64,000 nucleotides of DNA from positions 64,001 through 128,000 of the forward strand of contig JAHLWR010000009.1 in NCBI GenBank assembly GCA_019057815.1, in the 5' to 3' direction. Within the stretch, counting starts at the first letter, position 1. Each line of letters opens with the position of its first letter. A program made the translations under genes and the position numbers. A model generated the notes under the pieces. That model saw only the letters and a program-made list of their open reading frames with translations. It did no database searches and was not told where the DNA came from. Source of the stretch: Candidatus Heimdallarchaeota archaeon. Its GTDB lineage: Archaea; Asgardarchaeota; Heimdallarchaeia; Heimdallarchaeales; Heimdallarchaeaceae. Shown one piece after another: positions 3,433 through 35,439 of this stretch.

Positions 3433-3520
3433 CCCAAATATAAAAAGGAGAATCTTTCCTTATTAATCTTTCTTGTTATTAATAATAAGAAAAAGTAGAG
3501 ATAAATAAGAACTAAGCAAT

Positions 3521-4147
3521 TTACTTCTTCTTTTCTAGCTCTTTATCTATTCTTGCTGCTTCGATGACGAACTCTTTGAATCCTTCAGGTTCTTGACCTT
3601 CTTCTATTGTATAAACAAAAGGCTTTCTTTTTCTTTCAACATCTAATTTTCGGGCAATTTTCCCTGCTTCATACTTTTCTCTAACTTGTGAATCTTTGCC
3701 AATCCAGACATAAATGTCATCCCAAGCATCTAGAACAAAAGTATCTCCAGATTTGAAAGATTTCATCTTAATAGGAACTTCTTTGGTTTCTATTTCACCG
3801 TCATCTTTCTGAATGATTCTTAGAAGTTTGTAATCAATGTCCGCTTTCTTCTCAAAGTGTACTAAGAAACCAGGAGTGTCGCCTTCTACAACTTCAAAAT
3901 CTAAAATGCTTTTGAATTCTTCAGGTTCATCGCCTTCTGAAATAGTTTTGATGAGTAATTCCTTATTTCCTTCTTCAACAACCTTTGCCCCCCATGCCCC
4001 AACAGCTTTATCATCAGCATAGGATTTTGACCCAATCCAAATCCAAACATTCAGAGGTGTAATAACTAGATAAACATCTCCATTGTTGAACTTATAAGGT
4101 TCTTGGAGTTTTTTTAGCTTTTTACGAATAACTTGATAAACATTCAT
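3521..4147 (-). CDS. Two-domain gelsolin-family actin regulator (Asgard 2DGel-like)
   Basis: Two gelsolin repeats: FNNGDVYLV..VWIWIGSKS..K..EGDEPEEF and FKSGDTFVLD..IYVWIGKDS..EK..EEGQEPEGF. Confidence 0.9.
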   Translation of the reverse strand: MNVYQVIRKKLKKLQEPYKFNNGDVYLVITPLNVWIWIGSKSYADDKAVGAWGAKVVEEGNKELLIKTISEGDEPEEFKSILDFEVVEGDTPGFLVHFEKKADIDYKLLRIIQKDDGEIETKEVPIKMKSFKSGDTFVLDAWDDIYVWIGKDSQVREKYEAGKIARKLDVERKRKPFVYTIEEGQEPEGFKEFVIEAARIDKELEKKK

Positions 4148-4199
4148 ATTTTATTATATATTTTTACTATCTTAAAAAAATTGTGAATGTACTTATGAG

Positions 4200-4420
4200 T
4201 TATTTTCCCCACTTTTCCCAGATTGAAGGAAAGTGGAAGACAATTTTGAGGACTCTTCCCAACCCAGGAACGTTTAAGGTCGCATAGCATCAAGCAGTAG
4301 CTTAGGGAGCTTCAAGCTCTGGGATTACACCTCCAACACACAGTGTTAACAGAGGTGAGGGGGTTCATCTCCTCACCGGGACTCATTACTGGAGACTTAT
4401 GTTATTGAGAACCTTAGGTA
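4200..4420 (-). ncRNA. Putative omegaRNA (reRNA) of the TnpB
   Basis: ~200 nt non-coding stretch 3' of tnpB with several hairpins (ggtgagg 4354-4360/cctcacc 4371-4377; aacac/gtgtt 4335-4347; gagct/agctc 4307-4319; ggaaga/tcttcc 4235-4259); canonical position for TnpB RNA. Confidence 0.6.
4202..4224 (+). repeat. Inverted repeat, copy downstream of tnpB
   Basis: attttccccacttttcccagatt vs reverse complement of 5941-5963 attttccccacttttcccacatt (22/23; 19 bp perfect). Confidence 0.9.
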
Positions 4421-5893
4421 CTCACTCCAGCTCCGGGGGTAAGCAGATGACTCTGCTTTGTCTGTAGCCATTGGCTCAAGACAGGGAAGACACGAAAAGA
4501 ACTGAGTGGAAAGAACTTTCCACTAACATGGTCTTTAATGGAGTTATATTTTGGTTGCAGAACGTATTTTATCAGTCTTTTAGCTATATTTTTCGCTCCA
4601 TTTAAGTCTGCATTAAGGTTATACCCACAAGTGTTGCAGATGAATGTAGGTTGGTTGGGACGGATAGTGTGATAGGATTCACAACGAGAACAGTAAGAAG
4701 AGGTCCACGATTCACTGATTGTTAGTATCCTATGCTCCTCCCATCCCTGTAAAGAGAGCTTGAATTTGAGTAATTCTGCCACTCTCCTGTAATTCCATTT
4801 GTGGATACTTTTACGGGAACGAGGGTGGAAGTTACCTCTGAAGTGGCTCTTACGGATATGAAAGGGGAAACCTACAACCACGTAGAGATCATATCTCTTA
4901 CCAACAGAGAGTATATATTTTACTAACTTATTGACATAGGTGTGGTCAGTTAGTTTATATTCAGTTCTTTCTCTCTTTCTGAGTTGTTTTAGTTGGTGGA
5001 GAAGATTTTTTTCTCTTGTTTACAGTCAAGCTAGTTTTAGCTAAAATTTTCTGCAGTTCAGTTATTTTTCTTTCTTTTTCCTTTTGCAATTTTTTTCGTG
5101 TCTTATCAGACCAGAATCTGATCTCATGACGGTTGATAACTCCCTTCGGAGTTAAGAGTGCACTTACTGCACGTTTGTTGATTCCTAAATCTATCCCCAG
5201 CACAGCTGGAGGACGAGGAGAAGCATACTTTTCTGGAATGTGAAGCAAGATGAAATGTACCCACCATTCCTTCTTCATTGGGTAGTAGAGCACTTCGAGT
5301 GCCTGTAATTTCCCTTGTTGTAGGTTATATTCATGATAAGGGGAACAAGCGAGAGGTAACCACAATTTCTCGTGTATGTGAGTTTTGTTCTTCTTTGTAT
5401 CAAAGGAGTCTCTTATCCCTACCCACCATCGGGCAATGGAGTTGGAAGGAGAACAAGTAAGAATAAACCTTTTACTATGGGCTAGCTGTGTACGGGGGAT
5501 TTTTTTTAGTGGAGGATTCTTAGCAGGAGCTGAATTGTTTGCTTGTTGACTGTGGTAGATAGCTACAGCATTCTCTCTACATTCCTGTAACTCATTCTGG
5601 GAGCAGCGAGGAAAGCTCTTTTTCAAATCATGTCTAACTGTAAGTCGATTGTGTAGTTTATTCTTCTTATATGTGGTAAGAGTATGATGGTCTAGTTTTG
5701 CTTTACTCACCTTCTTCTTTCCCTTCTTTTTGTTTACTAGTTGCTCTTCATTGTGATAGATCACTCTTAGGTACTGCTTAATTATTCTTGTATCTCTTCC
5801 CGTAATTTGCTCTAGTCTCTTTCTTTTCCGTGTTGTGATTACTTCTGCTTTAATTCTCACTTTTACAGTCGTTCTCACCCCACTTCTCGTCAT
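4414..5893 (-). pseudogene. tnpB: RNA-guided nuclease TnpB with rearranged (Fanzor-like) RuvC; single +1 frameshift
   Basis: RuvC-I VLGIDLG; RuvC-II region YVVVGFP followed by ISESWTS; Zn finger CSRC..CNTC; RuvC-III NADLNGAKNI. Removing one A from the A7 run (5006-5012) fuses ORFs 4961..5893 and 4414..4881 into 492 aa. Confidence 0.9.
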
Positions 5894-5940
5894 TCTTGAA
5901 TCATTATTTCTATTAGATTTTCCTATAAAAAGCTAACTAG

Positions 5941-5963
5941 AATGTGGGAAAAGTGGGGAAAAT
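5941..5963 (-). repeat. Inverted repeat, copy upstream of tnpB
   Basis: aatgtgggaaaagtggggaaaat, ~48 bp upstream of the tnpB ATG. Confidence 0.9.
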
Positions 5964-6042
5964 CAACCATGCATATTAGTGTTATAAAAATATACAAGCA
6001 AAACAATAAATTTTATAAAATACTTCGTTACAAATCATTTTA

Positions 6043-6909
6043 ATGCGTAAGCCAAAGAAAGAATACTATCTAGAATGGGAAGCTGAGAAGATTTTCATTA
6101 ACTTAAAAAACGGAGCTAAGTTAAGAGTTCTCTATTACCCTGCTATTACGAAATCAGAAAATACTCTCAATATCGTTTATAATTCAGGTTTTAATTCATA
6201 TGTTTTTATCTGGCTCGAATCTGTTGAGGAGCTAAGAAAATATCATAATATTTACTTCATCGAAACAAGAGAAAAAGAATTCTGCGAAATGCCAGATAAC
6301 AATCAAGATTACAGCGTACCTATACTTTCTGAAGATTTTAAATATGCACTTGATGAATTAGGACTAGATATTAGTAAGTGCGTTTTTACGGGGTCATCTA
6401 TCGGTTCTAATGGAATATTACACTCCATGGATAAATATCATTTGAAGCCTTTTTTGGCGGTTTTAGCTACACCAATGGCTCTAATGGAAAGAACTAATCT
6501 TATTGATACGACGCTTTGGATGCCTTATTATGTTGCTCAACTGCTTAAACCGTTTTTATACTTATTAATAACTATAATTTTCAGGAATGACAAATCCCAA
6601 GTAAAAACTATGAAACATGGTGTCAGCAGAATGCTCAAGAAAAAAAGTATGGCATGGCTTAGATTAAATCCTCTAAGTAAACCTTACGTAATGTCTGAAG
6701 AACATACAAAAAATCTTCATTCTCCAATTGTTATTGTAAACCCAGAAGCAGATAAAACTCACGATAGCGGTCTAATGACAAAAATAGAATCTTTTCTTCC
6801 CAAAGCGAAATTTGTAACAGTACCTGTTAATTCTGATACTCATAATAAGCGCTTTGCAAAGATTATCTTGGATGAGATTGAAAATCAAAGAAATAAGAAA
6901 GAGAATTAA
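6043..6909 (+). CDS. Alpha/beta hydrolase
   Basis: Nucleophile elbow GSSIG; late Asp and His candidates (ADKTH, DTH). Confidence 0.7.
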   Translation: MRKPKKEYYLEWEAEKIFINLKNGAKLRVLYYPAITKSENTLNIVYNSGFNSYVFIWLESVEELRKYHNIYFIETREKEFCEMPDNNQDYSVPILSEDFKYALDELGLDISKCVFTGSSIGSNGILHSMDKYHLKPFLAVLATPMALMERTNLIDTTLWMPYYVAQLLKPFLYLLITIIFRNDKSQVKTMKHGVSRMLKKKSMAWLRLNPLSKPYVMSEEHTKNLHSPIVIVNPEADKTHDSGLMTKIESFLPKAKFVTVPVNSDTHNKRFAKIILDEIENQRNKKEN

Positions 6910-6968: not shown

Positions 6969-7613
6969 ATGGATAATAACAAAGATAATGCTGAACTTCT
7001 ATGGAAGGTTATTATATCCAAAATTAAACCATATTTAACAAGTGATGATCTCGTTTTTTTAGACGCAGATAGATATTCTAAGTTGATTATAAGGTTGAGA
7101 GATATTAAAGAGTTAAACGAAAATGAACTATCTTATGCTAGAAAAAACAGAGATTTAATCCTCTTAAGAATGGGACTGATTCATACAATTCCTGATATGT
7201 CGGATCAAGTCTTGGAATTAGCATTACATCAAGTAGCAGTCCGTTTAGCTAAAACATATTATAGCACTAATGTTGTCGAATCAATAGAAGAAGCTGAAAA
7301 AAAAGTTTTAGACTTGGTCAGAAACATTGGACGTGGAGTTGTTTCAATTAGTTTGAATCCTGAAGAAGGAATTATTGATATGCGTAATGTACTTACTAAA
7401 TATAGCAAAATAACGCTTGATAATGCAAAAGATATTGAAAAGATATTATCTAAGCTTAAAGATGATCTAATGGAAATCGGTGTTGTTGGTTCGGTTCTAC
7501 ATGATATTAGCCAAGTATGTCAACAATTAAGGAAAACTAGAGAAGAAGATTTACCTATGAAATCTGATATTTTGGAATCATCTTATGACTGGCAAGAAAA
7601 AATCTTGAAGTGA
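6969..7613 (+). CDS. Hypothetical protein
   Basis: 214 aa ORF overlapping the next start; no recognised motif. Confidence 0.7.
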   Translation: MDNNKDNAELLWKVIISKIKPYLTSDDLVFLDADRYSKLIIRLRDIKELNENELSYARKNRDLILLRMGLIHTIPDMSDQVLELALHQVAVRLAKTYYSTNVVESIEEAEKKVLDLVRNIGRGVVSISLNPEEGIIDMRNVLTKYSKITLDNAKDIEKILSKLKDDLMEIGVVGSVLHDISQVCQQLRKTREEDLPMKSDILESSYDWQEKILK

Positions 7614-34176: not shown

Positions 34177-35439
34177 TTAAATATTTTCGCCTTTACAAGT
34201 GGCTTTTTCTCCCTTCTCTTCTTTTTCATCATAGTCATTCTTATCTTTTTTTGTTTTGAATATTCGTAAACTTACAAAATATACTGGTAATACATACGCT
34301 ACTGCCCATACAATATCTATCAGGTAGTGATGATTCAACCATAAAGCTGAAAACCACATTCCTATAGGCCATAAGAGTACAATGTAACCTACTCTTCTCC
34401 ATTTTCTTATTGCAAAAAAAGCTACTATCAATGCATAAGCGCTATGGATACTTGGAACAGCTGCATATTGATTTGAGCTAAGAGCTCCATAAAGAGTCTG
34501 AAATATAGCTAAACCTGATAATTTATCTAGATCGAGTAATCCAGCAGCACTTCCTTCTTCTCCTGGTAAGGGTGCTACGAAATTAAAACCGTTTCCTTCG
34601 TTCCAAACATACCAAGGGGCTGCTGTTGGAAAAAGTATGAAGGTTATATAAGCGATATGTGATGTGAAAAACATAGTATAGACAAACCGCTTGAACTCAG
34701 TTTTATCTTCTACTTTCCTATACAAAAACACACCAATAACTAGTGGTCCAGTAAAATGATTAGCATAAAATATCCCTGCAAGTATATTCAAGAATTTAAC
34801 TAAATTTGTTTGTGTTTCCACAAAAACTATAGGTCCTGTTCGATTGATTAAATTAAGGACATTTACATATTCTAGAAAACCTTCTTCTGGTCTAATCTGT
34901 TTGAATTCCATGAAAGTAAAAGGGATGATGTCTTCTCCCATAAACCAGCCAGTTAACCATACTTCCATATCAAATACTTCTTTAACATATACTCGATGAG
35001 CTAAAGAGTCAGTTATTACTCTTAACATATCGTAACTTATCCATATTAAGATAAAAGGTCCCCAGTAAAGGATGAATTTTCTAGCATCTCCAAAAAACAC
35101 TGCAAGAATTAAGCAAGAAACAAGAGCATGATCAATACGAAAACCCATAAGGAAAACAGCTAATAATAGATAAACAATGACTATAATAATACCAAAAAAA
35201 CGCATGTACATCTTTTGTTTCTTTATATCTAGATTACTCCACCATATTTCAGTTCTCTCGTAAGGATATTTGATTTTCTGAAAGAAAGTTAGGGCAACAC
35301 CATCTTGTTTTATATCAGTGTCTAAACCATTAGAATTAGAATCTTCACGAAGTTGAGTAGATGGTTCTTCTATTAAAGTGTCTTCCATGCTGTTCAGAGT
35401 TACTGTAATGCTCCCATACTTAAGATAATCGAAAGACAT
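34177..35439 (-). CDS. AUR1/inositol-phosphorylceramide-synthase-like PAP2_3 membrane phosphotransferase
   Basis: YDMLR, FPTAAPWY, AAGL..D, AAVPSIHSAY, HHYLID. Confidence 0.85.
   Translation of the reverse strand: MSFDYLKYGSITVTLNSMEDTLIEEPSTQLREDSNSNGLDTDIKQDGVALTFFQKIKYPYERTEIWWSNLDIKKQKMYMRFFGIIIVIVYLLLAVFLMGFRIDHALVSCLILAVFFGDARKFILYWGPFILIWISYDMLRVITDSLAHRVYVKEVFDMEVWLTGWFMGEDIIPFTFMEFKQIRPEEGFLEYVNVLNLINRTGPIVFVETQTNLVKFLNILAGIFYANHFTGPLVIGVFLYRKVEDKTEFKRFVYTMFFTSHIAYITFILFPTAAPWYVWNEGNGFNFVAPLPGEEGSAAGLLDLDKLSGLAIFQTLYGALSSNQYAAVPSIHSAYALIVAFFAIRKWRRVGYIVLLWPIGMWFSALWLNHHYLIDIVWAVAYVLPVYFVSLRIFKTKKDKNDYDEKEEKGEKATCKGENI

Follow-up and report, generated by a model that had tools for sequence, protein, structure and literature searches.

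How elements that carry tnpB alone, with no transposase, manage to spread is a long-standing puzzle that has been raised for haloarchaea (PMC3119063). The same question is posed by a locus in a stretch of 64,000 nucleotides from a Candidatus Heimdallarchaeota archaeon (contig JAHLWR010000009.1, positions 64,001 to 128,000), here called the window, which corresponds to C30:64001-128000 of genome G000 (3.7 Mb, 48 contigs) and in which a tnpB gene and its RNA region are enclosed by inverted repeats. This feature is one slightly broken copy of a multi-copy mobile TnpB element, and the repeats are its true ends. It belongs to a family of non-autonomous TnpB/omega-RNA transposons that is restricted to Heimdall (Asgard) archaea and may be moved by IS607-like conservative double-strand recombination through an enzyme acting in trans, a reading to which we assign a probability of about 0.4.

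Ends and layout of the element

The top inverted repeat returned by a repeat search of window positions 3500-6700 has arms of 30 nt (4195-4224 and 5941-5970) that are 87% complementary, and its score of 20 was not reached by any of 200 shuffled versions of the region (mean 11.6, maximum 17). These are the ends resembling terminal inverted repeats (22 of 23 positions, or 26 of 30 when extended) that the initial annotation had described, and the tandem sub-repeats that it had noted within them were also seen: an 18-nt core, TTTTCCCCACTTTTCCCA, is the same in both arms and consists of two tandem sub-repeats ~10 bp apart, each starting with a run of T. Nothing other than tnpB and its RNA region lies between the arms, as had been claimed, with the correction that tnpB is split by a 1-bp insertion into two open reading frames (ORFs) on the minus strand. 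The left end (LE), the right end (RE) and all motifs are given below in the sense of tnpB, which is the minus strand of the window.

4195-5971, minus strand: whole element, 1777 bp including the CAT core at both ends; limits of homology to four other full copies and six miniatures
5941-5971, minus strand: LE, with a CATG tip at 5968-5971, then five variable bases, then the core TTTTCCCCACTTTTCCCA
5922-5931, minus strand: TATA-box-like TTTTTATAGG, just inside the LE repeat and ~40 bp upstream of the tnpB ATG, as read from the sequence
4961-5893, minus strand: N-terminal ORF piece of tnpB, 310 amino acids (aa) from the ATG, which aligns to intact copies of 488-492 aa
4414-4881, minus strand: C-terminal ORF piece of tnpB, with zinc ribbon (TNB) and RuvC-II/III (PF07282, E=1.2e-12)
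4195-4484, minus strand: structured RNA region (putative omega RNA, ~290 nt), which overlaps the 3' end of tnpB and reaches the RE tip
4195-4224, minus strand: RE, the repeat core followed by ...AAAATAACTCAT; 4195 is the last base of the element and 4194 is flank
35386-35389, no strand: CATG, the unoccupied target of a miniature present at the orthologous place in the sister species G001 (comparison of empty and filled sites)

The motif TTTTTATAGG is a putative archaeal promoter. The RE can form a hairpin near its tip (CCACTTTCC...GGAAAAGTGG); no local hairpin was found on reading the LE sequence.

Copies and miniatures

Genome G000 holds five full copies, namely that of the window and four others (88-90% identical), together with six gene-less miniatures of ~355 bp, in which ~68 bp of the LE are joined to the last ~290 bp of the element. 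All 11 copies carry the repeat in unrelated contexts, and homology between them ends at the outer edge of the repeat, with CATG on the left and ...AACTCAT on the right and unrelated flanks beyond. In addition, the insertion of the window is found at the orthologous site of G001, where the sequence is 94% identical over 4.8 kb. Of the full element, the miniatures contain the left tip, the TATA-like motif and exactly the RNA block, and because TTTTTATAGG and the RNA are retained they look like promoter-plus-guide-RNA cassettes, a stand-alone type that has already been described (PMC10691335). Two remnants of the family are also present in G000, a lone RE-like fragment at C19:25548-25590 (...GGACAAAGTGGGAAAAATAATTCATG) and a truncated miniature at C27:90258-90313.

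It could be argued that the repeat is local to the locus, for example that tnpB was inserted in the loop of an older palindrome and that the repeat is not part of a mobile element. The initial annotation had anticipated this, naming copies without the repeat, or homology ending inside it, as findings that would speak against a mobile element; the 11 copies show neither. The idea of a local repeat was considered next to impossible, being refuted by the copy boundaries and by the empty sites described below, which lack the repeat, and no support for it was left after testing. The proposal of a non-autonomous mobile element with true terminal inverted repeats, made before any other copy had been seen, agrees with the many copies, the gene-less miniatures and the lack of a transposase inside the element.

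TnpB protein and probable guide RNA

The tnpB gene of the window is broken by a 1-bp frameshift, one extra base in a homopolymer near position 5012, and open frames of 501-505 aa are found in the G001 ortholog and in three other G000 copies. With NF040570, whose curated cut-off is 100, the intact 488-aa protein P0001 gives a score of 77 bits, so that the TnpB is regarded as divergent; its match to PF07282 reaches 50 bits. In 12 diverse members of the clade, D231, E390 and D425, together with C397, C400, C415 and C418, are invariant. The clade thus keeps the RuvC catalytic residues and the zinc ribbon (TNB) of a TnpB nuclease, the window copy itself being frameshifted. In the PDB, P0001 matched Cas12f and TnpB best; at E<=1 there was no match to a chain named Fanzor, the presence of Fanzor chains in the searched PDB set being unconfirmed. 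All homologs found are from Asgard archaea, with identities of 43-89% in Heimdall and 36-42% in Thor and Loki, and among the homologs found the clade appears to be Asgard-only. Together with related records named Heimdallarchaeota, these homologs bear out the earlier suggestion of an Asgard genome.

The last ~290 nt of the element form a conserved multi-helix RNA (19 copies, alignment A2), with compensatory changes at 13 of its 70 predicted pairs and a folding energy of -69 kcal/mol; no Rfam match was found for this region. Structure, overlap with the 3' end of tnpB and a terminus at the right boundary are all expected of a guide RNA, and the ~290-nt RNA is most likely the guide (omega) RNA of TnpB. 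The putative guide would come from flanking sequence below 4195, and the RNA shows complementarity to the LE repeat in its 3' part.

In Thorarchaeota, relatives of this TnpB stand head-to-head with a giant ORF of 1,717-1,878 aa (L134:2115-7751 on the minus strand with tnpB at L134:7992-9737; L150; L153:2606-7759 with L118, L123 and L138), the two versions of which are homologous (25% identity, E=1e-104). The L134 and L150 sequences, from different metagenome-assembled genomes, share a 7.65-kb block of giant ORF and tnpB with unrelated flanks on both sides, suggesting a larger mobile unit. As a partner for the Heimdall element the giant ORF was rejected, having no homolog in G000, no Pfam match and no PDB match.

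Target sites and junctions

At the places corresponding to two G001 insertions, the G000 sequence is uninterrupted, namely at G000:C5 (versus G001:C17) and at window 35386-35389 (versus G001:C157); no paralogous empty sites were found in G000. In the first case the empty site reads ...ACATA-CAT-AGTG... and the filled site ...ACATA-CA(A)G-ATTG...//...AACT-CAT-AGTG..., where the bracketed A is T in other copies. In the second case the empty site is the CATG listed above. Since the target holds a single CAT and the filled site has CAT at both junctions, there is no duplication beyond a shared core of 2-3 nt. The initial annotation had found no target-site duplication, which stands for everything outside the core and has to be qualified for the core itself, as CAT (or AT) occurs once in the empty site and at both filled junctions.

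The same pattern is seen when ~30 copies of two subfamilies are compared. CAT closes the RE in ~30/30 of them and is followed by G (21), A (~10) or T (1), whilst the base before the LE-side CAT was never T at 28 sites, the RE having T at that position. The target pattern can be written (not T)-CAT-(mostly G or A). The AT within CAT is common to both junctions and the empty target, and differs from the canonical GG core of IS607.

The gene adjoining the RE side of the window copy (3521-4147, minus strand) specifies a gelsolin-repeat protein of 208 aa (PF00626, E=2.7e-20), and on the other side lies an ORF of 288 aa (6043-6909, plus strand) without a Pfam match. In genomes of genus g3 (e.g. G009:C42), the element and the 288-aa ORF are both missing between the gelsolin gene and the homolog of 6969-7613, and the stretch 4195-6909 is therefore specific to the genus of the window.

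Relatives with the same end design

A relative at 43-46% identity is present in 12-15 copies in G004 and G007, two closed genomes (at least 12 in G004). The tips of these copies are the same as in G000, (C)ATG at the left end and, at the right end, ...TCAT with G or A as the next base, and their inverted-repeat core, TTTTTTACGTAA, is unrelated to the G000 core. Miniatures of 383 bp with these tips also occur, and six copies in G007 are 95-97% identical to each other, suggesting that they moved recently. Between subfamilies, the LE and RE repeats co-vary (e.g. L076). Moreover, other multi-copy TnpB families of ordinary size in G000 (F2, F5 and F3; ~420-440 aa) have ends of the same kind, in which the left starts with (T)ATG, the right stops at ...TCAT and the inverted repeats consist of two T-led sub-repeats, e.g. 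TTTGTCATAnnGTCAT. Even F1, the canonical hairpin-ended TnpB family of G000, ends ...GTTCAT. On present sequences, the end design appears conserved and general across the TnpB families here.

Other TnpB-family loci in G000: C24:150583, C48:184910, C46:38458, C31:17800, C33:106317, C1:20883, C19:48990, C12:126693, C1:97878

Search for the mobilising enzyme

The initial annotation had proposed mobilisation in trans by a serine or DDE recombinase and had suggested looking for the transposase that carries the same ends. Movement in trans fits the data, but no transposase or recombinase with these ends was found in G000 or in the two closed relatives G004 and G007. In G000, no further occurrence of the repeat was found at <=4 mismatches in 18 nt, and hence no autonomous partner. 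In G004 and G007, exact pairs of the repeat core enclose only tnpB units, and unpaired matches are miniature ends or remnants.

A DDE cut-and-paste transposase encoded elsewhere could produce such ends, if it made a 2-3 bp (AT or CAT) duplication in the manner of IS630/Tc1 (TA) or some IS5 subgroups. This explanation comes closest to the Fanzor-like picture of the initial annotation, and it would account for true inverted repeats and for the two sub-repeats per end, which resemble binding sites; moreover, TnpBs linked to DDE enzymes and bounded by inverted repeats have been described (PMC10691335), and in formal terms a 3-bp duplication would also leave CAT at both junctions. However, no DDE partner with matching ends was found in G000, G004 or G007 (rve, IS110, tyrosine recombinases, Mutator and Y2 were not searched), and IS630-type genes (PF13358) were not found in the closed genomes G004 and G007. 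An invariant, non-palindromic duplication of 3 bp would also be unusual, and cut-and-paste footprints would put T before CAT, a base never seen there. Taken together, a DDE transposase seems rather unlikely. An abundant IS4/IS5-type insertion sequence of ~1 kb, e.g. at G007:C1 219976-220979 (L192:1077-2080), is present in ~25 near-identical copies in G007 and in 1-3 copies in G004. It was rejected as a partner, since its inverted repeat, AAGCATGTCCAAAAATT, is different and it makes ordinary target duplications of 6-7 bp.

A variant of the IS200/IS605 peel-and-paste mode would have a Y1 (HUH) TnpA in trans insert the element just 3' of CAT, the CAT at the RE being its own cleavage site. Insertion beside a short fixed motif without duplication is a signature of IS605, and the RE hairpin near the tip, the ...GTTCAT terminus shared with hairpin-ended F1, two Y1 TnpA genes in G000 and one in G007, the genome with the recent burst of miniatures, are all consistent with this route. 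The two Y1 genes of G000 are at C8:11236-11604 and C4:63655-64023. The ends, however, are inverted repeats and not matching hairpins on the same strand, and the LE has no local hairpin; there is no PF01797 match in closed G004 despite its copies, nor in the incomplete genomes G014 and G024, and the Y1-linked elements of G000 have different ends. The inverted ends and the absence of Y1 TnpA from G004 support a mode other than that of IS605, and mobilisation by a Y1 enzyme is judged quite unlikely.

Cas1 of Asgard archaea was also rejected as a transposase, as none of the three Cas1 loci in G000 is near tnpB, two being beside CRISPR arrays and the third disrupted. Tandem arrays with a period of ~66-70 bp are present at at least 15 loci in G000, some of them beside serine recombinase genes. 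These arrays may be CRISPR or another class of repeat; contigs C18 and C20 carry Cas1 beside arrays with a period of ~75 bp.

Tandem-array loci in G000: C1:81000-82350, C24:159070-159385 and many other contigs, e.g. C18:39800-42600 and C7:56700-62500

A proposed IS607-like route and its difficulties

An IS607-like reading is favoured on account of the shared short core, the lack of duplication, the repeated end motifs and a target motif that is possibly the same as the cut-site motif of TnpB. In such a route, an enzyme encoded elsewhere would bind both ends as double-stranded DNA, through the tips and the paired T-run sub-repeats, and would swap strands at the shared AT (or CAT) core, just as the IS607 serine transposase does at GG. 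Core exchange would give a circular intermediate and leave a scarless donor site. TnpB with its omega RNA could then cut the emptied site, recognised by the CAT motif and the flank matching the guide, and repair from a sister copy would restore the element. The T before CAT at the RE, which never occurs at targets, would protect occupied sites from being cut.

Several observations weigh against this reading. A palindromic core such as AT is unusual for directional serine recombination, and by sequence alone insertion immediately before or after CAT cannot be told apart from core exchange. The ends of L079, L082 and L100 share only CATGA and their long repeat is weak, so that the long repeat is specific to certain subfamilies. 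A search of public metagenomes for a circle or tandem junction gave three chance matches only. None of the serine-recombinase (PF00239) loci in G000 carries the repeat motif, and the sole IS607-like element of that genome was rejected as a partner because its ends are asymmetric and lack CATG. The closed carrier genomes G004 and G007 contain no IS607-type TnpA, and the two serine recombinases in each are both of resolvase type. One resolvase-type recombinase (240-284 aa) adjoins an IF-2B-family gene in G000 and G004, a conserved housekeeping synteny, and is 77% identical over its whole length between these genomes though the repeat cores of their elements are unrelated. Because the defining serine TnpA was not found, the element is not filed as IS607.

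IF-2B-linked resolvase, G000:C1:82593-83312 (L021:1489-2211)
IF-2B-linked resolvase, G004:C1:83784-84500
Other resolvase-type recombinases, G000:C24:157206-157904 and G000:C21:46274-47020

The IF-2B-linked resolvase is 76-83% identical across three genera. Amongst 41 relatives, it is present in 22/24 genomes of archaeal family f1, where the TnpB clade is present in 14/24, and each is found in 0/16 elsewhere. As a host mobiliser the resolvase was rejected, since its occurrence matches that of the clade only when whole archaeal families are compared, and with 77% identity despite unrelated cores it appears too conserved to read lineage-specific repeat cores. Nevertheless, these data bear on an undescribed route, in which a co-opted resolvase-type serine recombinase of this archaeal family would act on the CATG tips, or TnpB and its omega RNA would aid in end recognition; RNA-aided recognition is proposed because the 3' segment of the RNA is complementary to the LE repeat. 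The confinement of both resolvase and TnpB clade to family f1 would fit such a route, as would the finding that nothing beyond the tips and the general design is common to several TnpB families whose repeat cores are unrelated, TnpB and the RNA being the sole lineage-specific products of each element. In addition, joining of the ends as RE-CATG-LE would create a long palindrome centred on AT, similar to the crossover site of a small serine recombinase. Against this, the co-distribution amounts to a single event at the lineage level, some genomes have the resolvase and not the element, and to our knowledge TnpB does not join DNA strands. An undescribed route of this kind, which would be common to several TnpB lineages of Heimdall archaea and fit none of the IS605, IS607 or DDE modes, is a long shot, although if true it would offer a new explanation for the movement of solo tnpB elements that encode no transposase. 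The readings weighed here do not together take up the whole probability.

Comparison with known systems

In IS607, an identical 2-bp core is found at the junctions and in the target, no duplication is made, the ends carry short repeated motifs and the cut-site motif is the target motif (PMC6188088; 10.1101/2023.11.20.567912). The Heimdall elements, for which the IS607-like route is preferred, resemble this family (IS607, IS1535, ISC1926 and the C. botulinum IStron) in having tnpB with a guide RNA at the right end and no target duplication, an identical short core at both junctions that occurs once in the target, a target motif that plausibly doubles as the cut-site motif, and short repeated motifs within ~30-60 bp of each end. 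Unlike IS607, they have no serine tnpA, either in the element or elsewhere with these ends, their core is AT or CAT and not GG, and they are bounded by symmetric inverted repeats of ~25-30 bp, in contrast to the asymmetric IS607-like element of G000.

The solo-tnpB (IS1341-type) derivatives of IS200/IS605 are likewise tnpB-only and non-autonomous, lie beside a short motif without duplication (PMC3119063, PMC10691335, 10.1101/2023.03.14.532601) and have miniatures that keep the ends and the guide RNA. Their tips, however, carry same-strand hairpins and no inverted repeats, whereas the Heimdall elements have inverted repeats and are present in the closed genome G004 without a Y1 TnpA. A TnpB-family nuclease and its RNA between inverted repeats are also found in DDE-associated prokaryotic TnpBs and in eukaryotic Fanzor1 transposons (PMC10691335, PMC3627910), with solo copies presumably moved in trans; the present family differs in its archaeal host, in lacking an ordinary duplication and in that no DDE gene with matching ends was found.

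The description of the locus as "Fanzor-like" in the initial annotation was overstated. Inverted-repeat-bounded prokaryotic TnpBs, solo TnpBs moved in trans, stand-alone omega RNAs and Asgard-linked TnpB groups have all been published (PMC10691335), which leaves the term as a loose analogy. Judged by the Asgard hosts and the PDB matches, and not by a tree, the element lacks the marks of Fanzor membership, namely a eukaryotic or giant-virus host and a place in the Fanzor clade, and nothing here links its TnpB to Fanzor ancestry. The junction pattern, with a core of 2-3 nt and no duplication, looks more IS607-like than eukaryotic DDE-like.

As an Asgard-restricted TnpB clade, the family also resembles the aCas1-linked groups Cas1H-Asgard-1/2 (PMC10691335). 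Thor and Loki relatives (36-40% identity) carry GTTCACTCA downstream of tnpB, a motif of those groups, whereas the Heimdall elements have no Cas1 beside them and CATG tips with inverted repeats replace GTTCACTCA. With exact boundaries, empty sites, recent miniatures in a closed genome and few candidate enzymes, the family is a well-defined study system, and the compact clade (~490 aa, with a predicted cut-site motif ending in CAT) may interest those who build genome-editing tools. Set beside the systems above, it adds the archaea nearest to eukaryotes to the hosts of TnpB elements bounded by inverted repeats.

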